Source: an uncultured Eggerthellaceae bacterium
GTDB taxonomy: Bacteria > Actinomycetota > Coriobacteriia > Coriobacteriales > Eggerthellaceae
DNA length: 35,271 bases
NCBI GenBank assembly: GCA_946626265.1
Contig: CAMOUE010000001.1
Span: 1 to 35,271 of the forward strand
Reading direction: 5' to 3'
Below are positions 10,461 to 28,352 of this stretch, piece after piece. Positions within the stretch are counted from its first letter, which is position 1. The number at the start of each line of letters is the position of its first letter. The translations under genes were made by a program, and so were the position numbers. The notes beneath the pieces are model-generated. The model saw only the letters and a program-made list of their open reading frames with translations, did no database searches and was not told the origin of the DNA.

Positions 10461-10476
10461 CGTCCCATAGAGGGCC

Positions 10477-10502
10477 CTTCGCGCATGCCGGCATGCGCGA
10501 AG
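10477..10502. repeat. 26-bp perfect GC-rich palindrome 16 nt after the dapB stop
   Basis: cttcgcgcatgcc / ggcatgcgcgaag are exact reverse complements. No T-tract follows. Confidence 0.7.
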
Positions 10503-10654
10503 AGTTCGTGGACAAAACGAATACGCCTGCAGGGCGTGCAATAATTACCTGTGCTGAAAAGCGCGGGCCTGACGCGTCGGCCAAACGCGATGATCGCATG
10601 GCCGAGGCGCGTCGGCATGGCTCAATCGATGATGGAAGTGCAGAGGAGCTGACG

Positions 10655-11545: not shown

Positions 11546-11631
11546 AGACAACGAACGGAACGTCCACAAGGACGACTAGATAGAAAAACAGGCGAAAGCC
11601 TCATACGTGTTTGCTTGGAAACGAGGTATTA

Positions 11632-13527
11632 ATGGCAGAGGCAAACGAAAAGACGCCGAGAAGGCGGCATAGCGGAATCGTCGCAGATAACGGCGAAACG
11701 GAATCTGCTGCGCAAAAGCAGCAGCGCAAGAACGGTAAGCAGACGAAATCGATCAAGTACGTGACGCTCGAGAAGGAACGGCCGTCCCTCACCCGTGACG
11801 GCGCTTCTTCGGAAAAGGGCAGGCAGCGTCAAGGCCAACGCAAGCGCGGTTCCCGGGGCAGGGGCGCATCGAGCGGCGCGAAGATGAACATCATCCCGCT
11901 CGGCGGACTCGACGCAATCGGCAAGAACATGACCGTGCTCGAATGCGGGCAGGACATGGTCCTCGACGATGCGGGGCTCATGTTCCCGGACGACGATCAT
12001 CCGGGCATCGACCTCATCCTGCCCGACTACACGTACGTCCTCGAGCACGCCGACAAGCTGCGCGGCATCGTGATCACCCACGGCCACGAGGACCATACGG
12101 GAAGCCTTCCCTACCTTTACAAGGACCTTGACAAGCCCGTGCCGATATACGGCACGAAAATGACGTTGGGCCTCATCGAGGGGAAGTTCGCGGAACATCG
12201 CATCAAGAATGCACCGCTCGTGGAGATAAAACCGGGCGACAAGATCGACCTCGGCTGCATATCGGCCGAGTTCTTCTCCGTAAACCACTCAATCCCCGGG
12301 TCGGTCGGGATCTTCTTCAGAAGCCCAGCCGGAAACGTGCTGCATACGGGCGACTTCAAGCTCGACCAGACTCCCATCGACGGGGTTCTCACGGACTTCG
12401 GCGCCCTTGCGCGGTTCGGCCAGGAGGGCGTCGACCTCATGATGTCCGATTCGACGAACGCGATGAAGACGTCCTTCACCCCGTCGGAGCGCGAGGTCGG
12501 CAGGAACCTGAGCAGGATCATCGAGCAGGCGAAAGGCCGCGTCATCATCGCGTCGTTCGCGAGCCACATTCACCGCATGCAGCAAATATGCGATGCCGCA
12601 GTTGCCAACGGGCGCAAGGTGGTCGTAACGGGCAGGTCCATGATCCAGAACACCGACATCGCACGTCAGCTGGGTTACCTGAACATCGACGACAAGGACC
12701 TCGTCGACGCATACGAGCTCAAGGGCATACCGCCCGAGAAGATCGTCGTCATGTGCACGGGTTCCCAAGGCGAGCCGCTCTCGGCGCTGTCGCGCATTGC
12801 AGGCGGTCTTCACAAGACGATTAGCATCGACGAAGGCGATACGGTCATCATTTCCGCGACTCCCGTTCCCGGCAACGAGAAGAAGGTGACGCGCGTCATC
12901 AACCTCCTGTCGAAGATCGGGGCGGACGTATACGATAAGTCCCGCGCCATGGTCCACGTGTCTGGCCATGCGGGAGCCGAGGAGCTCAAGCTCGTGCTGT
13001 CGATTGCCCAGCCGCGTTCGTTCATGCCGGTGCATGGCGAGTCCACCCATCTGCGCGCCCATGCGCAGCTTGCCGCCGAGACCGGTGTTCCTGACGAGAA
13101 CATCTTCATATGCGAGAACGGCGAGAGCCTCGTCCTCGACGAGTCGGGCGTGAAGCACGGCGAGCGCGTACAGAGCGGCGTCGTGTTCGTGGACGGCCTG
13201 TCTGTGGGCGACACGTCGCAAGACGTCCTCGACGAGCGCGTGACGCTCGGAGCGCAGGGCTTCGCGGCTTTGGCGGCCGCCGTCGACATGACGCGCAGGC
13301 AGCTCGTCGGGCACGTTGCCATCGAGATGCACGGTATAACGGGCGGCGACGACTACTACGTCGCCGTGGAAGCCCAGGAAGTCGTCGAGAACGCGCTGAA
13401 GAAGCAGCTCGCAAAGGGCGCGACCGAGAAGGAGCTCAAGAAAGTCGGGCGCGATGCGCTGCTCAACTTGCTCTGGGACCGCACGAAGCAGCGGCCGATG
13501 GCCGTCGCCTCGATTCTGGAGGTATAG
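11632..13527 (+). CDS. rnj: Ribonuclease J with a ~84-aa basic N-terminal extension
   Basis: Metallo-beta-lactamase motif THGHEDHTG and beta-CASP region. ATG 11632 follows GAGG. An alternative internal start at ATG 11884 (MNIIPLGG) would remove the extension. Confidence 0.88.
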   Translation: MAEANEKTPRRRHSGIVADNGETESAAQKQQRKNGKQTKSIKYVTLEKERPSLTRDGASSEKGRQRQGQRKRGSRGRGASSGAKMNIIPLGGLDAIGKNMTVLECGQDMVLDDAGLMFPDDDHPGIDLILPDYTYVLEHADKLRGIVITHGHEDHTGSLPYLYKDLDKPVPIYGTKMTLGLIEGKFAEHRIKNAPLVEIKPGDKIDLGCISAEFFSVNHSIPGSVGIFFRSPAGNVLHTGDFKLDQTPIDGVLTDFGALARFGQEGVDLMMSDSTNAMKTSFTPSEREVGRNLSRIIEQAKGRVIIASFASHIHRMQQICDAAVANGRKVVVTGRSMIQNTDIARQLGYLNIDDKDLVDAYELKGIPPEKIVVMCTGSQGEPLSALSRIAGGLHKTISIDEGDTVIISATPVPGNEKKVTRVINLLSKIGADVYDKSRAMVHVSGHAGAEELKLVLSIAQPRSFMPVHGESTHLRAHAQLAAETGVPDENIFICENGESLVLDESGVKHGERVQSGVVFVDGLSVGDTSQDVLDERVTLGAQGFAALAAAVDMTRRQLVGHVAIEMHGITGGDDYYVAVEAQEVVENALKKQLAKGATEKELKKVGRDALLNLLWDRTKQRPMAVASILEV

Positions 13528-13604
13528 GCTTCGCATCCCGTGACGCCGAGGATGCCGCCTGCAGCGAAACGCGTTGCGGCGCACGATGCGCGAATCATTT
13601 CTGT

Positions 13605-13636
13605 TGAAGAGGGGTTGCTTTACAGTAGCCCCTCTT
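13605..13636 (+). terminator. Putative terminator hairpin after rnj
   Basis: gaagagggg (13605-13613) pairs with cccctcttc (13628-13636). 14-nt loop and only a weak T run. An AT-rich stretch follows before ftsK. Confidence 0.45.
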
Positions 13637-13693
13637 CGTTGGTATATACTAATTAGATAAACATTACTTAAACGCAGTAAAAAAGGAGCCAGT

Positions 13694-16153
13694 GTGGCAA
13701 GATCGTCATCTGCGAAGAAGACGAGCGCTCAAAAGGCGAATTCGAAACAAGGACAGCAAAGGAAGAAGGCTGCTTCGCCTGCGGAGAAGAGCGGGCGGAA
13801 AAGGCCGCAGCAAGCATGCGCCGCAACGAGGCAGCCACTGCTCGACGACGACGCGCATCGGACGATCACCGGCATCGTGTGCGCGGTCGTGGCGCTGGCG
13901 CTCGCCCTCATAGTCGCTTGGCCGACGGACGCCGTGCTGGCGTCGTTTCTGTCGCTGGCCCTCAGGCGTGCGCTCGGCATAGGCGCGTACCTGCTCCCGG
14001 TATGCCTCATGGTCGTAGCCGCCACGTTCGTCGTGCGCTTCGAATCCGAACGCGTTCCCACGCGCGTGGTGGTCGGCCTCGCGATTCTCTACGTGGCCGT
14101 GCTCGTCATGACTGCGCTGTTCACGCCCCATCCGCTCTACGTCGATGGGGGTGTCGCGACCGTTTTCGCTGACGACCAGGTCGTCCTTCACGGAGGATAC
14201 CTCGGCGCGGGGCCCGCCTGGCTCGGGTTGACGCTGCTCGGGCTGCCCGTGTCGTGCATCGTGACGATAGGCGTCGGCGCGATCGGCCTCGTGGTCATCG
14301 GGTTTTCCATCAGGAAGCTTCTCGCAGTCGTTGCCGAGAAGAAGGCCAAGCGCGAACAGCACGAGGAAGAAGTTCTCGGCGTCGCGCTCGAGGAGCCGTA
14401 CCGGCCCGTTCAACCTGCGAGGAGCGTACGTCAGCGCAAGCCGAGGGCGGTAGACGCGAGTGCGGCGACGCAGGCAATCGGCGCCAAGCCCGCTGCTGCA
14501 ACGGTTGAGCTCAGTGGCTCCGCGCGTGCGCATTCCGGTCGCATTGACCCTGCTGAGACGGGCAGGGGAAAGACCCAGCAGCTCACGAGGAAGCTTGGAA
14601 AGAAAAAGGACGGGTCCCCTTTGCAGGAACCGACGCAATCAACGGCGTCGCTCGAGCCCGCGCTCGCCGTCGCGCCCGAGGACGGTTTCGAGCTGCCCGA
14701 CATGAAGCTGCTCACGGTCGGGAAGGCTAAGAAGCGCACGAAGGCCGTCGAGAACGAGCTCGAGGAGACCGCGGGACGGCTGCAGCAGACTATGGAAGAC
14801 TTCGGCATCATGGCAACCGTCGTCGATTGGATCGCCGGTCCGACCGTCACCTTGTTCGAGGTCGACCTTCCTCCGGGCGTGCGCGTAAGCAAGCTCGTCG
14901 CGCTCAACGACGACATCGCGCTCGCGCTCGCAGCGCCCGGCGTTCGCATTTTCGCACCGATTCCCGGCACGCACTTCGTCGGAATCGAGGTGCCGAACGC
15001 GACGCGCGAGAACGTGTACCTCGGAGACGTGCTCAAGGACGTCAAGGGCGGCCCCCTCGAGATGGCCATAGGCAAGGACGTCGAGGGCAATTCGATCATC
15101 TGCGACCTCGCAAAAATGCCGCACCTGCTCATCGGCGGCACGACGGGTTCGGGCAAATCGGTCGGCATCAACGCCATGATCATGTCGATGCTCATGCGCG
15201 CGACGCCGTCCCAGGTGCGTTTCATCATGATCGACCCGAAGCGCGTCGAGTTCACGCCCTACAACGGCATTCCTCATCTTTACGTGCCGGTGGTCACCGA
15301 GCCCAAGGAGGCGGCGAGCGCGCTGTCGTGGGGAGTCGCCGAGATGGAGAGAAGGCTCAAGGTGTTCTCGAAGGTCGGCGCGCGGAACATCTCCCAATAC
15401 AACGAGAAGGCGCGCTCGGGCGAGCTCGGCGAGGACGAGACGTCGGAGCTGCCCTACATCGTCATAATCATCGACGAGCTCGCCGACCTCATGATGAACG
15501 TCGGGAAGGAAGTCGAGTTCTCGATCAGCAGGATTGCCCAGCTCGCCCGAGCGGCGGGCATCCATTTGATCGTCGCGACGCAAAGGCCGAGCGCCAACGT
15601 CGTGACCGGCCTCATCAAGGCGAACATCACGAACAGGATGGCGTTCAACGTCGCATCGGGCCTCGACAGCCGCGTTATTCTCGACGTCTCGGGCGCCGAG
15701 AGCCTCATCGGAAACGGCGACCTTCTGCTCTCGAAGCCGGAATTCGCGAAACCCGTGAGGATTCAGGGCTGCTTCGTGTCTCCCGAGGAGATATCGGCCG
15801 TAGTCGAGGCGGTCAAGTCGCAAGGCGAGCCCGAATACCATTCGGAGATTTTGAAGACGAACCTGATAACGCTCGGCGACTCCTCGCCGGACGGTTCGGG
15901 TGGCAGCGTGAGTGCCGATGACCCGCTTCTGTGGGACGCGGCCGATATCGTCGTCGCCAGCGGGCTTGGGTCGACGTCCAACATACAGCGAAAGCTGAAG
16001 GTCGGATACTCGAGGGCTGGCCGTATAATGGACATGCTCGAGGAGAAAGGCGTCGTCGGCCCGCCAAACGGCAGCAAGCCGCGTGACGTGCTTGTCGACG
16101 CGTTGGAGCTCGAGACCCTCAAGGCGTTCGAATCGTCTGACGGGAATGATTAA
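13694..16153 (+). CDS. ftsK: DNA translocase FtsK
   Basis: N-terminal TM helices, Walker A GGTTGSGKS, Walker B IIIDELADL and a C-terminal gamma winged helix (IQRKLKVGYSRAGRIMDMLE). GTG start after AAAGGAG. Confidence 0.95.
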   Translation: MARSSSAKKTSAQKANSKQGQQRKKAASPAEKSGRKRPQQACAATRQPLLDDDAHRTITGIVCAVVALALALIVAWPTDAVLASFLSLALRRALGIGAYLLPVCLMVVAATFVVRFESERVPTRVVVGLAILYVAVLVMTALFTPHPLYVDGGVATVFADDQVVLHGGYLGAGPAWLGLTLLGLPVSCIVTIGVGAIGLVVIGFSIRKLLAVVAEKKAKREQHEEEVLGVALEEPYRPVQPARSVRQRKPRAVDASAATQAIGAKPAAATVELSGSARAHSGRIDPAETGRGKTQQLTRKLGKKKDGSPLQEPTQSTASLEPALAVAPEDGFELPDMKLLTVGKAKKRTKAVENELEETAGRLQQTMEDFGIMATVVDWIAGPTVTLFEVDLPPGVRVSKLVALNDDIALALAAPGVRIFAPIPGTHFVGIEVPNATRENVYLGDVLKDVKGGPLEMAIGKDVEGNSIICDLAKMPHLLIGGTTGSGKSVGINAMIMSMLMRATPSQVRFIMIDPKRVEFTPYNGIPHLYVPVVTEPKEAASALSWGVAEMERRLKVFSKVGARNISQYNEKARSGELGEDETSELPYIVIIIDELADLMMNVGKEVEFSISRIAQLARAAGIHLIVATQRPSANVVTGLIKANITNRMAFNVASGLDSRVILDVSGAESLIGNGDLLLSKPEFAKPVRIQGCFVSPEEISAVVEAVKSQGEPEYHSEILKTNLITLGDSSPDGSGGSVSADDPLLWDAADIVVASGLGSTSNIQRKLKVGYSRAGRIMDMLEEKGVVGPPNGSKPRDVLVDALELETLKAFESSDGND

Positions 16154-16163
16154 AGGAGTAAAC

Positions 16164-17750
16164 GTGGCTCAAATGACTTCAGGGAAGGTTCTCCGCGAAG
16201 CTCGTGAGCGCAAAGGTTACGAGCTGGATACCGTCGCACGGCGGTTGAGGATCAGACCGGATATTCTCCGCGCAATCGAAGCCGGCGATTTCAAGGCGAT
16301 GCCGCCGCGAGGCTACACCCGCAACATGGTGAACGCCTACGCGAAGCTCTTGGGTTTGAATCCTACCGAAATCGTCAACATGTATCTTGACGAGGTCTAT
16401 GCCTATCAGGTCGAGAAGGCGCGTGGCAACGCGCCTTCGAGCGGCTTCAGCATGGACCGCGAGTCTATACGCACGCGCGCGAGGAGCCGTGCGATGCGCT
16501 ACGACGACTGGGAGGAGCCGACGGCCGCCTCCGCGCGTGCGGTGCGCATGCGCGAGGAGGGCGCGGGGTCGAGCTTGCGGCGCGACCTCTACGACGATAG
16601 GACGGAGTTCTCCCGCGACGATTACGGCGTGACGCGCGAGCGCACGCTGCGGACGGACCGTTCCGAACGGGATTTCATGAGCCACCATTCGGGATATTCG
16701 GCCGACGGGTACGGTTACGACGAGTCGCGCCGAATCAGCAGGCGCAATCGCGATATCATGGTCGGCGAGACGCCCATGCACTACAAGGCTTCGCGCGTTC
16801 CGGCTTTCCTGAAGTCCCGCGTTGCGATTGCAATCATCGCGGCCGTGGTCGTGGTCTTGCTGGCTTTGGGCGCATTCGCGCTGTTCGGCAACAAGACGAC
16901 GAGGGCCGACGACGACGTGTCGCAGCTTCCCGTATCGGGGATCAGCGACACGACGAAGACTGACGACGCCGAGGAGGAGTCGTCTCTCGCCTCCGTCGAG
17001 ATCGCGCCGACGAGCTCTCGCGTGACGTATTCGGTCAAGTCTGGCGAGGAATGCTATATCGAGACGTACACGGACGGCGGAAAGGCCGAGGGAGAGCAAC
17101 TCAACGGCCCGGTAGAGAAGAGCATCGAGGTAACGGGAACGTGGACCATCACGACTTGGACGCCGGAGACCATAACGGTCGCCGTGGACGGCGACGTCGT
17201 GAAACTCGAGACGTCGGAGAAATACGGCGGCATGGCTGCCTACACCGTCGATTTCGCAAAGATACTCGAAACGTGGAAAGAGACGCATTCATCGAAGGAG
17301 GAACGCCGCTCGGCAGCCGTGGCCGCCGCCAACGGCACTGCGTCCGACAGCGCCGCGTCCGCGTCGACGAGCACTACGACGACGCAGAGCGAATCGTCCA
17401 CGACGGGCGACGGCACTCAGGGCGCCGAAAGCGAAACCACGCAGCAAAACGACGAGGGTTACGTAGGCGACGGCACGTATACGGACAACGGATACGGGAC
17501 GTACGACAACGGCAACGGTTACTACGAGGGCAACGGCTACCAGGGCTACACCGACTACGGCAACGGCACGTACGACCAGCAATACACGTACTACGACGAC
17601 GGTAGCGGTTACCAGGGCTACACCGATTACGGTGACGGCTCCGGCTACCAGGGCTACACCGATTACGGTGACGGCACGTACTACGAAGAGACGCCCGCCT
17701 ACGATGGCGGAGGCGATTATGTGGCGGAAGGCGATGGAAGCGGCGCGTAA
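16164..17750 (+). CDS. RodZ-like membrane protein: N-terminal XRE-type HTH, one TM helix, DUF4115-like domain, Tyr/Gly/Asp-rich tail
   Basis: HTH GKVLREARERKGYELDTVARRLRIRPDILRAIEAGDF. TM helix VAIAIIAAVVVVLLALGAFALF. GTG 16164 lies 6 nt after AGGAG. ATG 16173 is an alternative start. The track ORF start at 16083 overlaps ftsK. Confidence 0.75.
   Translation: MAQMTSGKVLREARERKGYELDTVARRLRIRPDILRAIEAGDFKAMPPRGYTRNMVNAYAKLLGLNPTEIVNMYLDEVYAYQVEKARGNAPSSGFSMDRESIRTRARSRAMRYDDWEEPTAASARAVRMREEGAGSSLRRDLYDDRTEFSRDDYGVTRERTLRTDRSERDFMSHHSGYSADGYGYDESRRISRRNRDIMVGETPMHYKASRVPAFLKSRVAIAIIAAVVVVLLALGAFALFGNKTTRADDDVSQLPVSGISDTTKTDDAEEESSLASVEIAPTSSRVTYSVKSGEECYIETYTDGGKAEGEQLNGPVEKSIEVTGTWTITTWTPETITVAVDGDVVKLETSEKYGGMAAYTVDFAKILETWKETHSSKEERRSAAVAAANGTASDSAASASTSTTTTQSESSTTGDGTQGAESETTQQNDEGYVGDGTYTDNGYGTYDNGNGYYEGNGYQGYTDYGNGTYDQQYTYYDDGSGYQGYTDYGDGSGYQGYTDYGDGTYYEETPAYDGGGDYVAEGDGSGA
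17535..17679 (+). repeat. Three copies of a 36-bp in-frame repeat encoding GYQGYTDYG(D/N)G(S/T), two of them tandem
   Basis: The core g-ct/tt-accagggctacaccga(c/t)tacgg(c/t)(a/g)acggc occurs at 17535-17570, 17608-17643 and 17644-17679. Confidence 0.85.
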
Positions 17751-17773
17751 GCCGTTAGGGAACAGGAGACACA

Positions 17774-18271
17774 ATGGCGAAGGAATCGAGTTTCGACGTC
17801 GTATCGACGGTCGACATGCAAGAAGTTGACAACGCGTTTCAGCAGGCCAAAAAGGAACTGACCCAGCGCTACGACCTTAAAGGGTCGGGCGCGACGATCG
17901 CTTTGGACAAGTCTGCTAGGAAGTTCACGGTAAAGGCGCCGAGCGATTTCGTGGCAGGTCAGGTTGTCGACATCATCAGCTCCAAGCTCATAAAGAGGAA
18001 AGTCGACATCACTGCGGTGAAATGGGGCGCATCGCAAGCTGCGGCAGGTCAGTCCGTCGTTAAGAACGGCGATATCATCGAAGGGATAGACCGCGACACC
18101 GCCGGTGCTATCAACAAGGACATCAAGGCGTTGAAGTTGAAGGTGAAAGTCCAGATAGAAGGCGACCATTTGCGTGTGAGCTCCTCGTCGATCGATACGC
18201 TTCAGGAGGTAATCGGCTTCCTGAAGGGCCAAGACTACGGCCAGCCCCTCCAGTACGTGAACTACCGCTAG
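17774..18271 (+). CDS. yajQ: YajQ family nucleotide-binding protein (UPF0234)
   Basis: The full-length sequence starts MAKESSFDVVSTVDMQEVDNAFQQAKKELTQRYDLKG, the characteristic YajQ N-terminus. AGGAG ribosome-binding site. Confidence 0.88.
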   Translation: MAKESSFDVVSTVDMQEVDNAFQQAKKELTQRYDLKGSGATIALDKSARKFTVKAPSDFVAGQVVDIISSKLIKRKVDITAVKWGASQAAAGQSVVKNGDIIEGIDRDTAGAINKDIKALKLKVKVQIEGDHLRVSSSSIDTLQEVIGFLKGQDYGQPLQYVNYR

Positions 18272-18278
18272 GAATCAG

Positions 18279-19601
18279 ATGGCAGAGCAAAGCAAAACCG
18301 GGAAGAGCGTCGCGTTCGTCACGCTCGGCTGCGCGAAGAACGAAGTCGATTCGGAAGCGATGCTCTCTCGGCTTCTCGCGGCTGGTTACGAAGAGGCCGT
18401 GAGCGCCGAGGAAGCGGACGTCGTCATCGTGAACACGTGCTCGTTCATTCAGGCTGCTACCGAGGAGAGCATAGACGCGATTCTCGAGGTGGCGGGTTTC
18501 GATTCGGTCGTCTCTGGCGAAGCGCATCTCGTCGTCGCCGGTTGCATGCCTGCGCGCTACGGCGACGATCTTGCCGATGAGCTCGTTGAAGCGAGCGATT
18601 TCGTGCCTTGCGCCGACGAGGGGTCGATCGTAGAAACCGTCGACAACCTCTGCGGTATCGACAGAATCGCAGGAGAGCGTAGGGCGATTCGTTCGAGTCG
18701 CGGTGTCCATTCGGGCGTTTCTGCTTACGTGAAGATATCCGACGGATGTGACAGGTTCTGCGCTTACTGCACGATACCCTATATCAGGGGGCGTTACCAC
18801 TCGTTCACCGAAAACGAAATAGACTCCGAGGTGCAGCAGCTCGTCGATTCCGGAACTCGCGAGATCGTGCTCATCGCTCAGGATACCGGGCGATGGGGGC
18901 AGGATTTCGACGAGCCGTCATCTCTTGCAGACCTTCTAAGCCGTCTTTCCGAGAAGTACCCGGATACGTGGTTCCGCGTCATGTACATTCAGCCCGAAGG
19001 CGTGACCGACGAGCTCATCGAGGCTGTTCGGGTGCACGATAACGTATGCAGCTACTTCGACATACCGTTCCAGCACTGCAATGCGGACATCCTGAAGAGC
19101 ATGAACCGAAAAGGGGACGCGAAGGGCTTCCTCTCGTTGGTCGGCAAGATTCGCGAGAGGATTCCCGATGTGACGCTGAGGACGACGCTCATAGCCGGAT
19201 ACCCGGGCGAGACCGACGAGCAGTTCGAAGAGCTTTGCGATTTCGTCGAAGATGCGGACTTGGATTACGTCGGCGTGTTCGCCTACTCGCGTGAAGAGGG
19301 AACAAGGGCTTTCGGCCTTCCCGATCAGGTGGATGACGACGAGAAGCTGCATCGCGCCCAGGCGATCCGGGACCTTGCTGACTCGCTGAGCACCCAGCGC
19401 GTCTCCAGGCGCGTCGGGCAACGCATCGACGTGCTCGTATGCGGCGAAGAGGAAGACGGCCAGCTGTTCGGCCGCGCCAAATGCCAAGCGCCCGACGTCG
19501 ACGGTGTCACGTATGTGAACGAGGGCTCGATCGGGAACATCGTGACGGTGTTAGTGGAAGACACGCTCGCATACGAGATGGAAGGTTCGGTGCTCTCGTG
19601 A
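18279..19601 (+). CDS. rimO: Ribosomal protein S12 methylthiotransferase RimO
   Basis: VAFVTLGCAKNEVDSE, radical-SAM CDRFCAYCTIP and a C-terminal TRAM-like region. Actinobacterial rimO-pgsA synteny. Confidence 0.88.
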   Translation: MAEQSKTGKSVAFVTLGCAKNEVDSEAMLSRLLAAGYEEAVSAEEADVVIVNTCSFIQAATEESIDAILEVAGFDSVVSGEAHLVVAGCMPARYGDDLADELVEASDFVPCADEGSIVETVDNLCGIDRIAGERRAIRSSRGVHSGVSAYVKISDGCDRFCAYCTIPYIRGRYHSFTENEIDSEVQQLVDSGTREIVLIAQDTGRWGQDFDEPSSLADLLSRLSEKYPDTWFRVMYIQPEGVTDELIEAVRVHDNVCSYFDIPFQHCNADILKSMNRKGDAKGFLSLVGKIRERIPDVTLRTTLIAGYPGETDEQFEELCDFVEDADLDYVGVFAYSREEGTRAFGLPDQVDDDEKLHRAQAIRDLADSLSTQRVSRRVGQRIDVLVCGEEEDGQLFGRAKCQAPDVDGVTYVNEGSIGNIVTVLVEDTLAYEMEGSVLS

Positions 19602-20737
19602 GCGAAGAGGGCAATAAGCAGTCCATCTGGACTATTTCTAACGTCATAACCATAACGCGCATACTTCTCGTGCCGGCTTTCGTCGCCGCGTTGCTGTGCC
19701 CTTGGCCCGATTGGTTCAACATACCCCAGATGGGCGAGGGTATCAGGCGCATTACCGCCGCAGTCATCTTCGTGCTGATATCGTGCACCGACTGGCTCGA
19801 CGGATACCTTGCGAGAAGGCTCGGCCAGGTTACCGATTTCGGCAAGTTCATGGACCCGCTGGCGGACAAGATCCTCGTCGCCGCCGCGCTCATCGCTCTC
19901 GTCGAGCTCGGCTCCCTTCCGACATGGGTCGTTCTGATAATACTCGCACGCGAGTTCATCGTGTCGGGGGTTCGCATGATGGCGGCAACGCAAGGGATCG
20001 TCATCGCCGCAAGCTGGCTCGGCAAGTTCAAGACCGTGTTCCAAATGATCGCGATCGTGCTCTTCACGTTGAAGGTGTCCAGTTTCGTTGAGGGCCTCGC
20101 CCCTGAGGTCGACCGAGCGCTCTACATCTTCAGCTGGATCATCATGGTCATCGCGCTCGGGCTCACCGTCGCCTCTATGATCGATTACCTCGTGAAGGCT
20201 AAAGAAGTTATCGGATTGGGCGATGCGCAAGAACGAATCGTCGAGAATTCAATAGACGCTGCGGCCGAACAGGCCATTGCCAAGGCATTGCGCGCAGGCG
20301 TCACCGTGGCGGCTGCCGAAAGCCTTACGGGCGGCTTGATAGGCTCGTCGCTGTGCGGAGTGCCGGGCGCTTCGGCGGCTTACGTCGGCGGTGCCGTGAC
20401 GTACGTGAATCCCGTCAAGGAGAAGATGCTCGGCGTGGAGGCGCGCGTGCTCGACACCGACGGTGCCGTATCGGAAGCATGCGCATGCCAGATGGCCGCG
20501 GGCATGAGGAAGGCTGTCGGCTGCGATATCGCCGTTTCGGCTACCGGCATCGCCGGCCCGACAGGCGCCGAACCGGGAAAGCCCGTGGGAACGGTGTGGA
20601 TCGGCGTTGCTTCCGAAAGGGGATCGCGTGCCGTCGAGCATCATTTCGACGGCGACCGCGCCATCGTGCGCGAGAAGGCCGCAAGAGCCGCTCTGGAAAT
20701 CATGGCTGAAGAAATCGACAGGTGCTCGCGCATATAG
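19598..20737 (+). CDS. pgsA: Single ORF fusing CDP-diacylglycerol--glycerol-3-phosphate 3-phosphatidyltransferase (PgsA) to a CinA C-terminal (PncC-type) domain
   Basis: CAP motif DWLDGYLARRLGQVTDFGKFMDPLADKILV in the first ~200 aa. The CinA_C signature AAESLTGGLIGSSLCGVPGAS follows in the same frame with no stop. GTG 19598 overlaps the rimO TGA (GTGA). Confidence 0.8.
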   Translation: MSEEGNKQSIWTISNVITITRILLVPAFVAALLCPWPDWFNIPQMGEGIRRITAAVIFVLISCTDWLDGYLARRLGQVTDFGKFMDPLADKILVAAALIALVELGSLPTWVVLIILAREFIVSGVRMMAATQGIVIAASWLGKFKTVFQMIAIVLFTLKVSSFVEGLAPEVDRALYIFSWIIMVIALGLTVASMIDYLVKAKEVIGLGDAQERIVENSIDAAAEQAIAKALRAGVTVAAAESLTGGLIGSSLCGVPGASAAYVGGAVTYVNPVKEKMLGVEARVLDTDGAVSEACACQMAAGMRKAVGCDIAVSATGIAGPTGAEPGKPVGTVWIGVASERGSRAVEHHFDGDRAIVREKAARAALEIMAEEIDRCSRI

Positions 20738-20936: not shown

Positions 20937-21995
20937 ATGAACGCAGATAAAGAGACTACGCTCAAACTCACGACCGACCAGATCGAGTCTAAATTCGGAA
21001 AAGGCGCCATCATGAAATTCGGCGATGGCGGCAAGGACCTTACCGTCGAGGCCATTCCCACCGGTTCGCTCGCGCTCGACGCCGCGCTCGGTATAGGAGG
21101 CGTTCCCCGCGGCCGCATCGTGGAGATCTACGGCCCGGAGTCGAGCGGCAAGACGACGCTCGCCCTCCAGATCCTCGCCGAGTCGCAAGCGCTCGGGGGA
21201 ATAGTCGCATTCATCGACGCTGAGCATGCGCTCGACCCCGTCTATGCCGCGCGTCTGGGCGTCGATATCGACGAGGTGCTCATATCGCAGCCCGACACGG
21301 GCGAGCAGGCGCTCGAGATCTGCGACATGCTCGTGAGGTCTGGGGCAATCGACTGCATAGTCATCGACTCGGTTGCCGCGCTCGTCCCTCGGGCGGAAAT
21401 CGAGGGCGAAATCGGTGACACGACGGTCGGTCTGCAAGCGCGACTCATGTCCCAGGCGCTTCGAAAGCTTGCTGGTTCGCTATCGAAATCGAACACGACC
21501 TGCATATTCATCAACCAGCTCCGCGAGAAGATCGGCATCATGTTCGGCAATCCGGAGACGACGACCGGCGGGCGGGCCCTCAAGTTCTTCTCGAGCGTGA
21601 GAATCGACATTCGGCGCATCGATTCGATCAAGGTCAATGGCGAAGTCGTCGGAAACCGCGTCAGGGCCAAGGTCGTCAAGAACAAGGTCGCTCCTCCGTT
21701 CAAGCAAGCGGAATTCGACCTCATGTATGGGCGCGGCATCTCCAAGGAAGGCTGCATCATTGACATGGCGGTCGAGGCCGGCGTCGCGAAGAAGAGCGGT
21801 GCCTGGTACACTTATGGAGAGCAACGGCTCGGTCAAGGGCGCGAGGCTGCGAAGCAGACGCTCGTCGACAACCCGGAGACGCGCGACGAGCTCGAGCGCA
21901 AGGTGCGCGAATTCTACGACATACCGATCATCGAGCGTTCGGAGGAGGACGCCGACAGCGTCACGCCCGTTGCCAAGCCCACGAAGAAGCGGTAG
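20937..21995 (+). CDS. recA: Recombinase RecA
   Basis: [12 protein letters not shown] Walker A and full-length RecA sequence. Confidence 0.98.
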
Positions 21996-22616
21996 ATGGG
22001 CACCTCCGATGCGCTCGCGGAGCTCAGGGCGCGCATTAGGTCGATTGAGAGCGGTGCCTCGAAGGGCCATTCCGAACGCCGCTATGGCGAGACGCTCACC
22101 TTCGAGTCGCATGCAAGCGTAGGCAGCTGCGATGGGCCTGCGGCCCTTGCGAGCGAACCGGAGCCCGACGAAGTCTCGAAGGCGCTGAAGAGGATTCTCG
22201 CACTCGTGAATGTGAGCGAGAAGTCGAGCGTGCAAGTTCGCAGAAAACTCGAATCGCTCGACTTCGAACACGACGTCATCGAGGAGGCGCTTTCGCGGGC
22301 TGTATCCTACGGATACGTGAGCGACGAGCGCTTCGCATGTTCGCTTGTAAGGAGCCGGCTTTCGCAAGGCAGGGGAGAGGACGGCATACGCCGCGAGCTT
22401 CTCGAGCATGGCATCGAAATCGACGACGTCCCGGGTTGGCCGTACGACTTCGATTTCGATTCGTCGGATGAAGCCGCACGGGCATACGATTTCATATGCA
22501 AGCATCCGAGCCGGTCGAAGAACGCACGCGAGGGAGCGTACCGCAAGCTCGTGCAGAAGGGCTACAGCTCGTCGGCGGCATCGGAGGCTGCCCGAAAATG
22601 GGCCGCCGAGCAATGA
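21996..22616 (+). CDS. recX: Regulatory protein RecX
   Basis: The ATG abuts the recA TAG. Helical-repeat sequence (VRRKLESLDFEHDVIEEALSRAVSYGYVSDERFA...) is typical of RecX. Confidence 0.88.
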   Translation: MGTSDALAELRARIRSIESGASKGHSERRYGETLTFESHASVGSCDGPAALASEPEPDEVSKALKRILALVNVSEKSSVQVRRKLESLDFEHDVIEEALSRAVSYGYVSDERFACSLVRSRLSQGRGEDGIRRELLEHGIEIDDVPGWPYDFDFDSSDEAARAYDFICKHPSRSKNAREGAYRKLVQKGYSSSAASEAARKWAAEQ

Positions 22617-22860: not shown

Positions 22861-24393
22861 ATGTCCGCAGTAGTTTATGCGATCATCGGCGCCATAGTAG
22901 GCATAGCCCTTGGTTTCGTCATCGCTCGTTACGTTGTTAACGCAGCTGCTAAGCGCAAGGAAGCCGAGGCCGAGAACATCGTAGCCGACGCGAAGAGGCA
23001 AGCGGAGACAATCAAGAAGGAAGCCGAGGTCGAGGCCAAGGATGAAGCTCTCAAGCTGAAGGCCGAGATCGAGAGCGAGCGCAAGGAACGCCAGCGCGAG
23101 GTCCGCGAGGCGGAGCACCGCGTACAGCAGAGGGAGGAATCGCTCGACCGCAGGACCGACTCCCTCGACCAGCGCGAACACCAGATTTCATCGCTTCAGG
23201 GCCAGGTCGAGCGTCGCCAGCGCGATCTGAACGAAGCCGAGAAGGAGATGAACCGCCGTCTCGTGAGCGTCGCCGGCATGTCCGCCGAAGAGGCGAAGGC
23301 CGAGCTGCTCGACACGCTCAAAGATGAAGTGACGCGCGAGAGCGCGGCGATAATCCGCGATTCAGAGGCGCGCACGAAGGCCGAGGCCGACAAGACGGCG
23401 CGGTCGATTCTCAGCCAGGCGATGCAGCGCATTGCCTCCGAGCATACGATCGAGAACACGGTGTCTTCGATCCAGATTCCCTCCGACGACTTGAAGGGAA
23501 GGATCATCGGCCGCGAGGGCCGCAACATCCGCTCGTTCGAGCAGATAACCGGCACGAACCTCATCATCGACGACACTCCCGAATGCGTGACCATCTCGTG
23601 CTTCGACCCGGTCCGTCGCGAGATCGGTCGCGTGACCATGGAAAACCTCATCGCCGATGGACGTATCCATCCCGCGCGGATCGAGGAGATGTTCGCGAAG
23701 GCCGAGAAGCTCGTGAACCAGCGCGTCCAGGAGGCGGGCGAGCAAGCTGCCTTCGACACGGGCATCCACGACATGGATCCCGAGCTTGTCAGGACCCTCG
23801 GTCGCTTGCGCTACCGCACATCATACGGCCAGAACGTGCTGAACCACTCCCTCGAAGTCGCTTACCTGTGCGGCGTCATGGCGAGTGAGCTCGGGCTCGA
23901 TCCCGTCCCCGCGAAGCGTGCCGGCCTCCTGCACGACATCGGCAAGGCGATCGACCGAGAGGTCGAAGGCAACCATGCCGTCATCGGCGCAGATCTTGCC
24001 CGCAGGTTCGGCGAGTCCGCGCATATCGTCCACGCTATCGAAGCGCATCACAACGACATCGAGCCAAACAGCGTCATCGACGTGCTCGTCCAAGCGGCCG
24101 ACGCCGTTTCGGCTGCGCGTCCCGGCGCGCGTAAGGAGACGCTCGACGCCTACATCAAGCGTCTCGAGAAACTCGAGGAAATCGCGATGTCCTACGAGGG
24201 CGTCGAGCGCACCTACGCCATTCAAGCCGGGCGCGAGGTCCGCGTCATGGTCGAGCCCGAAAAGGTCGACGAGGCCACGACGGTCGTTCTCGCTCATGAC
24301 ATCGCCAACCGCATCGAGAACGAGCTGCAGTACCCGGGCCAGGTGAAGGTCGTCGTTATCCGCGAGAGCCGCGCTATCGGCATCGCAAAATAG
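22861..24393 (+). CDS. rny: Ribonuclease Y
   Basis: N-terminal TM helix, coiled coil, KH domain ([15 protein letters not shown]) and HD domain (HSLEVAYL...LHDIGK). Confidence 0.95.
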
Positions 24394-24396
24394 CCT

Positions 24397-25476
24397 ATGG
24401 GCGAACGGTCGCTCGCAGAATTCGTCAGCGCGGTCAGAGATTCAAGCCACCTCCGAGTCGAGCAGGACTTCGGGGGTGGCTTCGTTCGCCTGCAAGTATC
24501 GGAAGCCGAGCGCAGGCAAGCGGCGCAGGATATAAAATGCTCGGAGGACATCGTCCTCGAGCTGCTTCGAAACTCCCGTGATGCACATGCCCGCTCGATT
24601 TTCATCGCCTCGTGCAAGGAGGGGACGAACCGCCTCTTCACGGTCCTCGACGACGGCGACGGCATACCTGCCCCCATGCACGACCTCGTTTTCGAGCCGC
24701 GTGTGACATCGAAACTCGACACGTCGCACAAGGATGCATGGGGCATGCACGGGCGTGGCATGGCGCTGTATTCGATCTCCGAGAACGCCACGAGCGCACG
24801 GGTCGTATCTTCGAGCCCGGAGCTCGGCTGCTCTATATCGGTCGTATCGGACGTGGGACGACTCGCGGAGAAGGCGGATCAGTCGAGCTTTCCGACGTTC
24901 ACCATCATCGACGGCGTCGTGCGTGTGCGCGGCCCCAGGAACATCGTCAGGACGGTATGCGAGTTCGCGATTGAGGAGCGCGCTCAGTGCAGCGTCTACA
25001 TCGGCTCGCCGGTTGAGATCGCGTGCTCGATGTACGAGACGGGAAAGAACACGCTCGCCCCGATCGAGCGGGTGTTCTGCGAAGACGCCGAGGCGCTCCC
25101 CGTGACGAAACGCCTCGCCACGGCGGGCGACCCGAAGACGTTCGCCGATATCGCCGAGTCGGTCGGGCTCGACATCTCGGAAAGGTCCGCAAGGCGCATA
25201 CTCGACGGCGAGGTGATCGCCGCTGCGCCGATACTCGAGCGCGTGGAGATAGCCAGCGGCGATGCAGGCTCTTCTCGGAAAGCGAAAAAGGCCCGAGCGC
25301 AGCTCTCGAACGCGATTAGGCTCGACCGTGCCTCCGTGGAGGAGTTCAAGGCCTCAGCCAAACGCGATTTCGCGGGGATTGCCGAAAGCCATTACCTCGA
25401 GCCCGACGTCGACGTCGCAGCGCGCGTCGTCTCGGGGAGGCTCGTCGTGTCGATACCGCTCGTTCCGAAAGAGTGA
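24397..25476 (+). CDS. GHKL (Bergerat-fold) ATPase-like protein with MutL-flavoured motifs and a C-terminal HTH-like segment. Function unknown
   Basis: Motif I ELLRNSRDAHA, motif II VLDDGDGIP, PRVTSKL, and GMHGRGMALYSIS. HTH-like TFADIAESVGLDISERSARRILDG. The ATG is 3 nt after the rny stop, with no visible Shine-Dalgarno sequence. Confidence 0.75.
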   Translation: MGERSLAEFVSAVRDSSHLRVEQDFGGGFVRLQVSEAERRQAAQDIKCSEDIVLELLRNSRDAHARSIFIASCKEGTNRLFTVLDDGDGIPAPMHDLVFEPRVTSKLDTSHKDAWGMHGRGMALYSISENATSARVVSSSPELGCSISVVSDVGRLAEKADQSSFPTFTIIDGVVRVRGPRNIVRTVCEFAIEERAQCSVYIGSPVEIACSMYETGKNTLAPIERVFCEDAEALPVTKRLATAGDPKTFADIAESVGLDISERSARRILDGEVIAAAPILERVEIASGDAGSSRKAKKARAQLSNAIRLDRASVEEFKASAKRDFAGIAESHYLEPDVDVAARVVSGRLVVSIPLVPKE

Positions 25477-25531
25477 TCTTGTGGTGCATGTGTGGCTTTC
25501 GACGCTCGACGGGCGGCGAAGTGTCAAAAAG

Positions 25532-25560
25532 TTGAAGTAATAGGACTATTACCTTAAAAT
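25532..25560 (+). promoter_or_regulatory. spoVS-homologue promoter TTGAAG-17-TAAAAT with a 16-bp palindrome in the spacer
   Basis: -35 at 25532-25537 and -10 at 25555-25560. Palindrome gtaatag-ga-ctattac at 25537-25552. Flanked by AAGTGTCAAA direct repeats at 25519-25528 and 25562-25571. Confidence 0.6.
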
Positions 25561-25639
25561 TAAGTGTCAAATAATCCAACGAATAGCATATCGAACGTAA
25601 TACGATCGAGCTTGAAACGCAAACGGAAAAGGGAATGGT

Positions 25640-25975
25640 ATGCAGAACAGCGAGCAGTACCAAAACGTCAATTGCCTGAAGGTGTCATCGAAGTCGTCAC
25701 CCGCTTCGGTGGCGGGCGCAATCGCGGGCATGGTCAAGGACGGCGTGCCCGTCGAGATGCAGGCAGTAGGCGCAGGCGCTGTGAATCAGGCCATAAAGGC
25801 AATTGCCATCTCCCGCGGTTTTCTTTCGCCGGTAGGCATCGAAATCGCATGCATCCCCTCGTTTGCCGACATCATCATCGACGGCGAGTATCGCACCGCC
25901 ATCCATTTCGCCATAAAGGCGCAGTACCTCAAGGGCACGACGGGCGTAGACGAATACGACTCCGCGCTTGGCTAG
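25640..25975 (+). CDS. spoVS: SpoVS family protein (stage V sporulation protein S homologue)
   Basis: LKVSSKSSPASVAGAIAGMV...MQAVGAGAVNQAIKAIAISRGFLSPVGIEIACIPSFADIIIDGEYRTAI aligns along its length with my recollection of Bacillus SpoVS. It has extra N- and C-terminal residues. Confidence 0.85.
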   Translation: MQNSEQYQNVNCLKVSSKSSPASVAGAIAGMVKDGVPVEMQAVGAGAVNQAIKAIAISRGFLSPVGIEIACIPSFADIIIDGEYRTAIHFAIKAQYLKGTTGVDEYDSALG

Positions 25976-25984
25976 TGGTCACTG

Positions 25985-27352
25985 ATGATTGGAGCACCCC
26001 ATTCCCTCATGGGTCTGACGTTCTTCGTGCAGACGTACGGATGTCAGATGAACAAGCACGACTCCGAGCGTGTCGTCGGAATGCTCGAGAATCTCGGAGC
26101 CGTATCGGTCGAGAGCATGGAAGAGGCGGACATCGTCGTCTTCATGACGTGCTGCGTCAGGGAAGCGGCGGATATCCGCTTGCTCGGGCAGGCGTCTTCG
26201 ATTAAAAACATGCGCTTGAGGAGCGGGTCGCCCCTCGACAAGCGCATGATAGCGATAGGCGGGTGCATAGGGCAACGTGACGGCGAGAAGCTGTTCGACG
26301 AGCTTCCACATCTCGACGTCGTGTTCGGAACGAACAACCTTTCCTCGTTGCCGGGGCTGCTCGAGGACGTGCTCGAGAACGGAAGGCACCGTATCGAGAC
26401 GGTCGAGGAATCGACGTTGTTCCCGAACGACTTGCCGACGGTCCGCGAACACGCATGGGCCGCCTGGCTTCCCATCGCCATCGGCTGCAACAATTTCTGC
26501 ACGTACTGCATCGTCCCGTATGTCCGCGGGCGCGAGAAGTCCCGCTCTTTCGACGATATCGTTGCAGAGGCGCGGCGATATGTCGAAAGCGGCGTGAAGG
26601 AGATCACGCTGCTCGGGCAGAACGTGAACTCGTACGGCAGGGACCTGTACGGGAAACCCCGCTTCGGGGACGTCATCGAGGCGGTCGCGCAGACGGGCGT
26701 CGAGCGCCTGCGGTTCGCAACAAGCCACCCGAAAGACCTGACCGACGAGGTAATCGCTAAATTCGCCACTGTCGATTGCCTCATGCCGGCCCTTCACCTG
26801 CCTGCCCAATCGGGGTCGAACAGGATCCTGAAGGAAATGCACCGCGTGTACACGATCGAGCATTACCGTGCGCTCATCGACAAGCTCAGGGATGCCAGGC
26901 CCGGCATTTCGCTATCGACCGACATCATCGTCGGCTTCCCCGGCGAGACGGAGGACGATTTCGAGCAGACTTACAAGCTCATCGAGGAAGTGGGCTACTC
27001 GCAGGTTTTCACGTTCATATACTCGAAGCGCGAGGGAACGCCGGCTGCAAAGCTCGTCGACGACACGCCGCGCGTGGTCATTCAGGAGCGCTTCGACCGG
27101 TTGCGCACGGTCGTCGAGCGCGGCGCATACGAATACAACCAGCTCTCGCTCGGAAAGACCGTTCCCGTGCTATTCGAGGGGTCCTCGAAGAAGCAATCCG
27201 GAATCGCGACGGGCAGGAGCCCCGAGAACATAACGGTGCATGCGCCGCTTCCGGAGGGCATGCGTATAGACGATCTGATCGGAACGACGCGTAACGTGAC
27301 GGTTGACCGCGCTCGTACCTGGTATCTGAGCGGGACGATCGCCGGCGCATGA
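25985..27352 (+). CDS. miaB: tRNA-2-methylthio-N6-dimethylallyladenosine synthase MiaB
   Basis: FFVQTYGCQMNKHDSE, radical-SAM CNNFCTYCIVP and a TRAM C-terminus. miaB-miaA synteny. ATG 26009 is an alternative start. Confidence 0.92.
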   Translation: MIGAPHSLMGLTFFVQTYGCQMNKHDSERVVGMLENLGAVSVESMEEADIVVFMTCCVREAADIRLLGQASSIKNMRLRSGSPLDKRMIAIGGCIGQRDGEKLFDELPHLDVVFGTNNLSSLPGLLEDVLENGRHRIETVEESTLFPNDLPTVREHAWAAWLPIAIGCNNFCTYCIVPYVRGREKSRSFDDIVAEARRYVESGVKEITLLGQNVNSYGRDLYGKPRFGDVIEAVAQTGVERLRFATSHPKDLTDEVIAKFATVDCLMPALHLPAQSGSNRILKEMHRVYTIEHYRALIDKLRDARPGISLSTDIIVGFPGETEDDFEQTYKLIEEVGYSQVFTFIYSKREGTPAAKLVDDTPRVVIQERFDRLRTVVERGAYEYNQLSLGKTVPVLFEGSSKKQSGIATGRSPENITVHAPLPEGMRIDDLIGTTRNVTVDRARTWYLSGTIAGA

Positions 27353-27362
27353 TGGTGGGACC

Positions 27363-28352
27363 ATGCCCCTCGAGCTCTCGAAACCCGTCATTGCGATTGT
27401 CGGCCCGACGGCATCGGGCAAGTCAGACGTTGCCCAGCTCGTCGCGCAATCCGTAGGCGGAGCCGTCGTCAGCGCCGACTCCATGCAGATTTACCGCGGC
27501 ATGGACATCGGAACGGGCAAGGTGTTGCCCGGGGAGCGTCTCGTGCAACATTACGGAATAGACCTCGTCGACCCGGGTGAGCCGTACTCTGCAGCGCTCT
27601 TCCAGGAATACGCGCGTACGTGCTTCGCGATGCTCGACGACCTGGGCGAGGTTTCAGTTCTGTGCGGAGGTACCGGATTCTACGTGCGCGCCGCCATCGA
27701 CGAATATGATTTCCCACGTGGCGAGCAGGTGGGAAACAAGCTGCGCGACGAGTTGAACGCCTTCGCGCGGGACCGGGGCGCCCACGCGCTTTGGGCGCGG
27801 CTTAGGGATGTCGACCCTGCGAGTGCGTCGATAATTCCCGAAAACGACGTCAAGCGCGTCGTGCGCGCATTCGAGCTCATTGAGGAAGGTACGACGTACG
27901 CCTCCCAGAAAGAACGGCTCGCATCGATTCCGCAGGCGGTTCCCTGCCTGCTATTCGGACTGGCCGTCGATCCCGATATCCTACGCGAGCGCATCGACGC
28001 GCGCGTCGACCGCATGGTGGAGAACGGCCTCGTGCAAGAAGTCGAAGGGCTCCTCGAGGCCGGCTTCAGGCGGGGCGTAACCGCGCCGCAGGCTATCGGG
28101 TACAAGGAGATCGTGTCTTACCTCGACGGGGAACGCTCTCTCGACGACGCCGTGTCGTGCATCAAGACGGCGACGCATCGCTATGCGAAACGCCAACGGA
28201 CGTGGTTTCGGAAAGACAAGAGGATCGCGTGGATCGATGCAGACGATTTCGATGCGGATGCTATAGCGGGACGCGTCGTCGACCTCGCGCGCGCAAGCCT
28301 TCGGCAGCAGGGTACGAGCTCCGCGAAATGCCAGGCAAAGCCTGCAAGATAG
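27363..28352 (+). CDS. miaA: tRNA dimethylallyltransferase MiaA
   Basis: P-loop GPTASGKS, SADSMQIYRGMDIGTGK and the HRYAKRQRTWFR motif. Confidence 0.93.
   Translation: MPLELSKPVIAIVGPTASGKSDVAQLVAQSVGGAVVSADSMQIYRGMDIGTGKVLPGERLVQHYGIDLVDPGEPYSAALFQEYARTCFAMLDDLGEVSVLCGGTGFYVRAAIDEYDFPRGEQVGNKLRDELNAFARDRGAHALWARLRDVDPASASIIPENDVKRVVRAFELIEEGTTYASQKERLASIPQAVPCLLFGLAVDPDILRERIDARVDRMVENGLVQEVEGLLEAGFRRGVTAPQAIGYKEIVSYLDGERSLDDAVSCIKTATHRYAKRQRTWFRKDKRIAWIDADDFDADAIAGRVVDLARASLRQQGTSSAKCQAKPAR

Follow-up and report, generated by a model that had tools for sequence, protein, structure and literature searches.

The stretch of DNA analysed here, referred to as the window, comprises 35,271 nucleotides from an uncultured Eggerthellaceae bacterium (GenBank assembly GCA_946626265.1, contig CAMOUE010000001.1, positions 1 to 35,271). 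The gene under study is an open reading frame (ORF) at 24397..25476, which begins with ATG and encodes a protein of 359 aa; its extent was confirmed as given in a preliminary description made from the sequence. The protein is a MutL-like ATPase of the GHKL type. Its gene is preceded by rny (22861..24393), which encodes an RNase Y of 510 aa with RNase_Y_N, KH and HD domains (TIGR03319, E 4.8e-212) and is its constant upstream neighbour, and followed by spoVS, its usual downstream neighbour. All three genes, the junctions between them and every segment of the ATPase gene discussed below are on the forward strand. Our findings leave little room for doubt that the gene belongs to a functional family of MutL-like ATPases specifically linked to rny.

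At the junction of the two genes (24391..24399), the rny stop codon TAG at 24391-24393 is separated from the ATPase start by three nucleotides (TAG-cct-ATG). No purine-rich Shine-Dalgarno sequence was found in the 25 nt preceding the ATG (cgctatcggcatcgcaaaatagcct), and such sequences are present ahead of rny, recA and spoVS in the same window. A start 3 nt after the rny stop without a Shine-Dalgarno sequence, as initially described, is thus borne out. Since the ATPase ORF of the window is in frame with rny (the TAG and one further codon), stop-codon read-through from rny into the ATPase was considered. It was rejected, because gaps of 1, 2, 4, 5, 8, -11 and -17 nt are common in other loci, and this variety deprives the shared frame of significance. 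The GC content at third codon positions of the ATPase gene (0.78) matches that of the neighbouring genes, which indicates that the gene is native. The same stop/start arrangement is seen once more in the window, at 21993..21998, where the TAG of recA abuts the ATG of recX, again without a Shine-Dalgarno sequence.

Residues 46-155 (24532..24861) constitute a Bergerat-fold ATPase domain. In the Pfam scan of the window protein, this part exceeded the thresholds of two models, with 32.6 bits for HATPase_c_3 where 25 are required (E 9.5e-8, residues 50-128) and 30.1 bits for HATPase_c where 26.4 are required (E 7e-7, residues 51-148), and nothing else in the protein was significant. The same two models were matched by all 44 diverse family members that were scanned. 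The residue numbers previously assigned to the Bergerat motifs turned out to be exact. Motif I consists of E55, N59 and D62, with R58 at the position of the second acidic residue of MutL; motif II comprises D85, G87 and G89; the lid contains R102-V-T-S-K106 and G116..G119-R-G-M-A-L124; and motif IV is marked by G144. Residue for residue, R-V-T-S-K and R-G-M-A-L-Y-S-I align with A-T-S-K-I and R-G-E-A-L-Y-S-I of MutL.

MutL was the nearest relative in every type of search, in agreement with the earlier impression of a MutL flavour rather than that of a histidine kinase. The top NCBIfam match was mutL (TIGR00585, E 5.4e-11); it covered only residues 46-162 and, at 42.1 bits, fell far short of the required 180, so that the window protein fails the curated MutL model. 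When PDB sequences were searched, whether with the protein itself or with profiles of the family, Aquifex MutL (1.9e-5), MLH1, B. subtilis MutL and PMS2 came first, followed by the CA domains of histidine kinases and by MORC2. The heads of MORC2 and MORC4 gave only weak profile matches (E 0.024-0.026), and in the two family-profile searches against PDB sequences the ATPase head was the sole part that matched. An AlphaFold2 model of the protein had a predicted local distance difference test score (pLDDT) of 81.5 overall and of 87-95 over the ATPase core (residues 41-100 and 121-160) outside the lid, of which residues 104-110 were of low confidence. The model predicts the alpha/beta sandwich of the Bergerat fold, in keeping with membership of the GHKL superfamily. 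The best Foldseek matches of the model were MutL N-terminal domains (1nhj, 5.8e-6; 9n2k; 4p7a), with histidine-kinase CA domains (ZraS, 7e-5) in the second tier and Topo VI-B after them; the Foldseek probability was 1.00 for all three groups.

Despite this proximity, the window protein is not a MutL. Neither the window protein nor any of the 44 members matched the DNA_mis_repair transducer domain (PF01119) at E<=1, MutL_C (PF08676) found no match in the same set, the C-terminal module being only ~50 residues long, and HisKA-type Pfam domains were likewise missing from all of these proteins. The statement that the protein contains neither a MutL C-terminal region nor a HisKA domain therefore stands, for the 44 members as well as for the window protein. 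In the structural model, a reduced remnant of the transducer could still be hidden in a beta-beta-alpha-beta-alpha unit that follows the head. A further departure from MutL concerns R58, which is invariant in the family and aligns with E32 of Aquifex MutL (aqMutL). That glutamate is the second catalytic acid, which in MutL and GyrB acts together with the glutamate that serves as general base (PMC13614785). The general-base residue itself, E55, is invariant. As the canonical catalytic glutamate is usually missing or replaced in histidine kinases (PMC13614785), its invariance favours a hydrolysing ATPase over a kinase.

The regions that flank the head are specific to the family. Residues 1-45 (24397..24531) form an N-terminal extension, modelled as a beta-hairpin and a helix with a pLDDT of 55 in the monomer, in which G28, L32, E36, R40, Q41, A42 and D45 are invariant; residues 42-46 align with the 'IAAGEV' region of MutL. 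The head is followed by a middle region (residues 156-285, 24862..25251), predicted to consist of the beta-beta-alpha-beta-alpha unit and a helical bundle, with invariant E158, Q162, S163, P166, G179, N182 and G203. It had no match in Pfam, PDB or BFVD. Within it, residues 246-271 (25132..25209) resemble a helix-turn-helix (HTH), as two model helices (246-255 and 262-269) surround a conserved G-L-x turn and S261, R263 and R267 are invariant. We found no recurrent HTH profile among the Pfam matches (1 of 44 members, E 0.018, in a scan at E<=1) and no matching fold, and the region is neutral to acidic rather than basic, with a median net charge of 0 across the family. The HTH that had been read into residues ~248-270 thus remains unconfirmed, having found neither profile nor fold support.

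The basic patch SSRKAKKARAQ noted at the same time is real, and it lies in a disordered linker (residues 286-310, 25252..25326; pLDDT <50 at residues 289-305). Across the family this linker varies from 13 to 68 aa in length and is net positive in 79% of members; the whole protein is acidic, with a pI of 5.5. The protein ends in an alpha-beta-beta module (residues 311-359, 25327..25473), modelled with a pLDDT of 87-90 as a helix (311-331) and two strands (341-345 and 348-352). This module is kept in members that are merely 33% identical and may be a constitutive dimerisation element. When residues 156-359 were modelled alone the pLDDT was 80, and a fold search with this part returned nothing significant (best E 0.35 in PDB and 0.17 in BFVD). 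The Pfam scan of the 44 diverse members at E<=1 revealed no recurring weak match to an HTH, a transducer or MutL_C.

The family is sizeable and has gone without a functional description. A word-indexed search returned 1803 matches, an exhaustive profile search 215 clusters at 50% identity (E<=1e-30), and a pattern scan found matches in 437 species-level genomes. The only public names in use are 'ATP-binding protein', 'sensor histidine kinase', 'anti-sigma regulatory factor' and 'hypothetical', and our literature searches found no publication that mentions the family, in line with the initial remark that no function had been described for this architecture. Among 124 cluster representatives, the lowest identity of which is ~33%, the residues of the ATPase head that are at least 95% identical are E55, R58, N59, R61, D62, D85, G87, G89, R102, V103, T104, G116, H118-L124 and G144. 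The same level of conservation was found at family-specific positions, namely G28, L32, E36, R40, Q41, A42, D45, E50, E158, Q162, S163, P166, G179, N182, G203, S261, R263 and R267, and members of only 33-36% identity keep the complete architecture. Members come from Coriobacteriia, Aquicultoria and Humimicrobiia, which are the Actinomycetota classes that are anaerobic and carry RNase Y. Its sources include Eggerthella, Gordonibacter, Adlercreutzia, Ellagibacter, Raoultibacter and Rubneribacter within the Eggerthellaceae, and Atopobium, Olsenella, Coprousia, Ca. Aquicultor and Ca. Hydromicrobium/Humimicrobiaceae outside them. One metagenome-assembled genome labelled 'Firmicutes/Bacillota bacterium' (GCA_023511485.1; protein P0282, locus L083) carries an ATPase 74% identical to that of Ca. 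Aquicultor in an identical gene order, and its label is probably a taxonomic misassignment rather than a sign that the family is present in Firmicutes. Within the Eggerthellaceae, the ATPases are 47-59% identical and the RNase Y proteins 71-95%, the ATPase thus evolving faster than its neighbours.

To compare gene neighbourhoods, we used 80 genome loci, all from Eggerthellaceae, and 88 further loci, obtained by looking up chosen proteins and by a metagenome scan for which the most divergent family members served as seeds; seven loci start no more than 323 nt from the end of a contig and could not be evaluated for the upstream gene. In all 162 loci with enough upstream DNA, belonging to at least three classes, rny is directly upstream on the same strand, and the RNase Y proteins of these loci range down to 50% identity with that of the window. 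The order pgsA/cinA-recA-recX-rny-ATPase-spoVS-miaB-miaA is common to all 80 Eggerthellaceae loci. The neighbours other than rny are less constant. We found spoVS directly downstream in ~132 of 150 evaluable loci (~88%), and in the clades without it the ATPase gene is followed by miaB or by a membrane protein. In L087, the order is rimM-trmD-lepB-rny-ATPase-miaB, so that recA and spoVS are both absent while the pairing with rny is kept, and in the Humimicrobiia loci no recA was found within ~2.4 kb. The conserved gene set around RNase Y that had been postulated is therefore supported; of the two linkages proposed for it, a position after rny is universal in the loci evaluated, and a position before spoVS is not. 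In one clade without spoVS (L153, 5044..6406), we observed that the ATPase gene is followed by a gene for a 306-aa protein with an N-terminal hydrophobic segment, one for a 128-aa protein that begins with a hydrophobic stretch, and then miaB.

The two genes overlap or are separated by at most 30 nt in 132 of the 162 loci, 3 nt being the commonest gap. There are 57 gaps of 0-5 nt and 36 overlaps, 31 of which measure 11 nt by start-codon calls; this 11-nt spacing is present in the Humimicrobiia loci that were checked (L097 and L104), and overlaps of stop and start codons were found in two separate classes. Where the gap is longer, purine runs resembling a Shine-Dalgarno sequence are present. In Coriobacteriia and Humimicrobiia, the spacing fits the translational coupling put forward in the preliminary description, and the two proteins would then be co-translated. 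The Aquicultor-like loci do not conform. In these, a GC-rich, terminator-like hairpin with a T-run follows rny (L081, 5679..6000; also L083, L127, L128 and L130), and a conserved promoter-like TTGACA element (TTGACAAA...ACAATAT) is found together with a GCTAGGT motif ~10-70 nt before the ATPase start. These elements point to a separate promoter for the ATPase-spoVS pair, and rny and the ATPase gene are in this case probably neighbours in separate transcription units.

The wider neighbourhood of the pair is centred on RNA, with SpoVS, MiaB and MiaA, and in the basal classes also with a cyclic phosphodiesterase and a relative of RNase RNM from the PHP group. Both of the latter are encoded in the Aquicultor-like locus L081. 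An RNA 2',3'-cyclic phosphodiesterase (ThpR/LigT; TIGR02258, above cutoff) lies between cinA and recA at 1025..1537, and the PHP-domain protein, related to RNase RNM and to 3',5'-bisphosphate nucleotidase (pAp phosphatase; 3e-54, below the equivalog cutoff), follows spoVS at 7461..8294. A LigB-AMMECR1 fusion was seen between miaB and miaA of the same locus (9697..11121).

In the window, spoVS is located at 25640..25975 (PF04232, E 4.9e-34), and its product belongs to the Alba superfamily (PMC11621453). The region between the ATPase gene and spoVS (25477..25639) is AT-rich, with 42% GC against 61% overall, and contains a promoter-like TTGAAG-17-TAAAAT at 25532..25560, which suggests that spoVS has its own promoter in the lineage of the window. 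An Rfam scan of the whole window, this region included, gave no hits. Downstream, at 25985..28352, miaB is followed directly by miaA, without mutS-mutL between them. In arrangements of the B. subtilis type, mutS-mutL lie between miaB and miaA. The arrangement of the window agrees with the published absence of MutS-MutL from Coriobacteriia (PMC5290159). Further upstream, the stretch 11611..19601 encodes RNase J, FtsK, an HTH_25 protein of 555 aa that resembles RodZ, a DUF520/YajQ protein and, as a paralogue of MiaB, a RimO-like protein, and with RNase J situated there, two nucleases of RNA decay, RNase J and RNase Y, are encoded within 13 kb. Ahead of recA, a single ORF of 432 aa (19439..20737, forward strand) joins a PgsA-like CDP-alcohol phosphatidyltransferase (residues 64-244) to a CinA C-terminal domain (residues 276-424). 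The two parts are separate genes in Atopobium fossor (L085), and tblastn coverage suggests that the fusion is common in Eggerthellaceae.

What could be the function of this ATPase? In each lineage with the family, the gene is bound up with rny, and in most of them it abuts or overlaps the rny stop, which makes a partnership with RNase Y its most likely job. ATPases like MutL, GyrB, MORC and Hsp90 dimerise through their N-terminal domains when driven by ATP, slow hydrolysis resets them, and MutL thereby licenses nucleases and helicases. With the invariant nucleotide-binding and general-base residues, the conserved strap-like segment, the flexible linker and a pairing with rny that is never broken, the family protein can be proposed to act as an ATP-gated switch or clamp. 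It would be a 'mini-MutL', composed of a MutL-type head, a strap-like N-terminal extension, a family-specific middle, a linker that is both flexible and basic, and a small module at the C-terminus. Binding of ATP would close the N-terminal domains into a dimer, and slow hydrolysis would reset them, as in MutL, GyrB, MORC and Hsp90, so that the protein would serve as a conformational switch or clamp and not as a kinase. As an ATP-dependent accessory or regulatory partner of the membrane-bound RNase Y, it might gate the assembly of the enzyme, its activity or its choice of RNA substrate, in the way that MutL licenses MutH and UvrD. The basic linker may contact RNA, and the Alba-like SpoVS may be a third component. 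For this composite model, in which an ATP-gated dimer works with RNase Y as a switch or clamp and tunes how the enzyme assembles, how active it is or which substrates it selects, we put the chances at about even.

Comparison with known systems shows where the proposal draws its analogies. With the N-terminal domains of MutL, MLH1 and PMS2 the family shares the Bergerat fold, the motifs E-x3-N-x2-D-A, DxGxG and R-G-x-A-L-Y-S-I, the T-S-K lid and the glycine of motif IV; its N-terminal segment aligns with the strap region, and the succession of head, disordered linker and small C-terminal module is that of MutL. Unlike MutL, the window protein has only 359 aa and possesses neither the DNA_mis_repair transducer nor the MutL_C dimerisation/endonuclease domain, and the family has a conserved N-terminal extension of 45 residues, an invariant arginine (R58) in place of aqMutL E32, and rny rather than mutS as the partner gene. 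Hsp90, MORC and Topo VI-B offer the paradigm of ATP-driven N-terminal dimerisation, with weak profile or fold matches to MORC2 and Topo VI-B, and Hsp90, like the family, has no second acidic residue beside the Mg-binding Asn (PMC13614785). By contrast, the family protein is much smaller than these, and the searches revealed in it neither an S5-fold transducer nor a CW, coiled-coil or H2TH domain. In the role proposed here, it would resemble the RicA/RicF/RicT Y-complex as a non-nuclease modulator of RNase Y cleavage, a role deduced in the present case from gene linkage alone. An Rny-RicT complex has been described (PMC10470536); the Y-complex shares no homology with the ATPase, is itself not an ATPase, and is not encoded beside rny.

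The main rival to a partnership with RNase Y is a role in DNA repair or recombination, in which a truncated, MutL-derived clamp would act on DNA in lineages deprived of canonical mismatch repair and its position beside rny would be incidental. It owes this standing to the report that all analysed Coriobacteriia lack both NucS and MutS-MutL (PMC5290159), and it agrees with the nearest relatives being the ATPase domains of MutL, MLH1 and PMS2, with a layout of head, disordered linker and small C-terminal module that mimics MutL, and with recA-recX just upstream in most loci. However, the protein resembles MutL only remotely (42 bits against 180) and no longer has the second catalytic acid; it has no endonuclease, MutL_C or transducer domain; and no partner of the MutS or nuclease type is evident, mutS having been absent from the large ORFs of the 35-kb window. 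The gene is moreover linked to rny and not to recA, as it is kept where recA is absent (L087) and where recA is either more than ~2.4 kb away or missing (Humimicrobiia). We consider this role unlikely. Still less probable is a GHKL protein kinase that would phosphorylate RNase Y, SpoVS or another target; it could be of the anti-sigma/SpoIIAB type or the orphaned catalytic domain of a histidine kinase. This is what the public labels 'sensor histidine kinase' and 'anti-sigma regulatory factor' imply, HATPase_c scores nearly as well as HATPase_c_3 (7e-7 against 9.5e-8), and histidine-kinase CA domains such as that of ZraS form the second tier in Foldseek (7e-5). But MutL models come first in every search, the lid motifs R-V-T-S-K and R-G-x-A-L-Y-S-I are of the MutL type, the catalytic glutamate is invariant, a trait that characterises GHKL ATPases with hydrolytic activity rather than histidine kinases, and there is no HisKA/DHp or other phospho-acceptor domain, the N-terminal 45 residues being a beta-hairpin and one helix. 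A MORC-like defence system was also tried and rejected, there being no PADLOC hits and a context of housekeeping genes; MORC and paraMORC ATPases combine the GHKL head with an S5-fold domain and are mostly encountered among restriction-modification or defence genes.

Two further explanations take the position of the gene as their starting point. In B. subtilis and Firmicutes, ymdB is found directly downstream of rny (PMC3542257), and the ATPase gene, like that of the 2',3'-cyclic-nucleotide phosphodiesterase YmdB, occupies the slot directly after rny. The ATPase might hence be a functional stand-in for YmdB, a different enzyme with the same RNase Y-linked regulatory role in lineages that lack YmdB. 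Among the neighbourhoods inspected gene by gene, none showed a gene of the YmdB type. In B. subtilis, ymdB lies upstream of spoVS, so that the slot is shared on both sides. Against this, an ATPase switch and a metallophosphoesterase have unrelated folds and chemistry, without sequence or profile similarity (the Pfam and NCBIfam scans of the window protein gave no calcineurin-like phosphoesterase match), the nearby ThpR and PHP phosphoesterases of the basal lineages would be better analogues of YmdB, and the link of YmdB itself to RNase Y function is unresolved (PMC6123443). We give such a substitution little credence, and the previously suggested 'interchangeable middle component', for which the slot shared with ymdB was the sole ground, is not supported. 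Alternatively, the ATPase might do a housekeeping job that has nothing to do with RNase Y or SpoVS and owe its position to inherited gene order, given that the block pgsA-cinA-recA-recX-rny-...-miaB-miaA is syntenic across taxa and resembles the Firmicutes arrangement. Yet each of recA, recX and spoVS is missing or sits elsewhere in some clades, rny and the ATPase gene are never split in 162 loci, and stop and start codons overlap in two separate classes. Since the neighbours vary while the pair stays, mere inherited synteny is disfavoured, and we hold it to be quite improbable. Descent in situ from the mutL located between miaB and miaA in Firmicutes was set aside, because the ATPase gene lies upstream of both spoVS and miaB and thus outside the mutL position.

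Several observations nevertheless weigh against a switch that acts on RNase Y. Physical contact of the two proteins is a proposal drawn from gene linkage, and no RNase Y-ATPase fusion proteins were found among the homologues of at least 405 aa. The gene order seen here is ancient and widely conserved, and part of the linkage could reflect inheritance rather than function. The hairpin and the promoter-like element of the Aquicultor-like loci imply that co-expression with rny is not obligatory. With R58 in place of the second catalytic acid, the protein may turn over ATP very slowly or chiefly for regulation. Finally, nucleic-acid binding is unproven, as the linker alone is positive and both the HTH-like region and the whole protein tend to be acidic; RNA may be the substrate, as the proposal would have it.

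A more far-reaching version of the proposal brings the three products together. The ATPase, the HD-domain endonuclease RNase Y and the Alba-like SpoVS would form an ATP-gated machine for nucleic-acid surveillance, in which a MutL-derived clamp licenses the endonuclease, perhaps on RNA-DNA hybrids or mismatches, and in part fills the gap left by MutS-MutL and NucS in Coriobacteriia. This is a speculative idea, and we think it has only a slight chance of being correct. Should it fail, the ATPase would be the first ATP-dependent, non-helicase regulator of an RNase Y degradosome.

The ATPase is the one MutL-like protein that our analysis encountered in a class that reportedly has none of the known systems of mismatch repair. 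Its C-terminal half, which has no recognisable fold, would define a new domain family. RNase Y initiates most mRNA decay in Gram-positive bacteria, and its regulation and specificity are still being worked out. The rny-linked ATPase is a concrete candidate for an energy-dependent partner of this enzyme, including in such common genera of the human gut as Eggerthella, Gordonibacter, Adlercreutzia, Atopobium and Olsenella.

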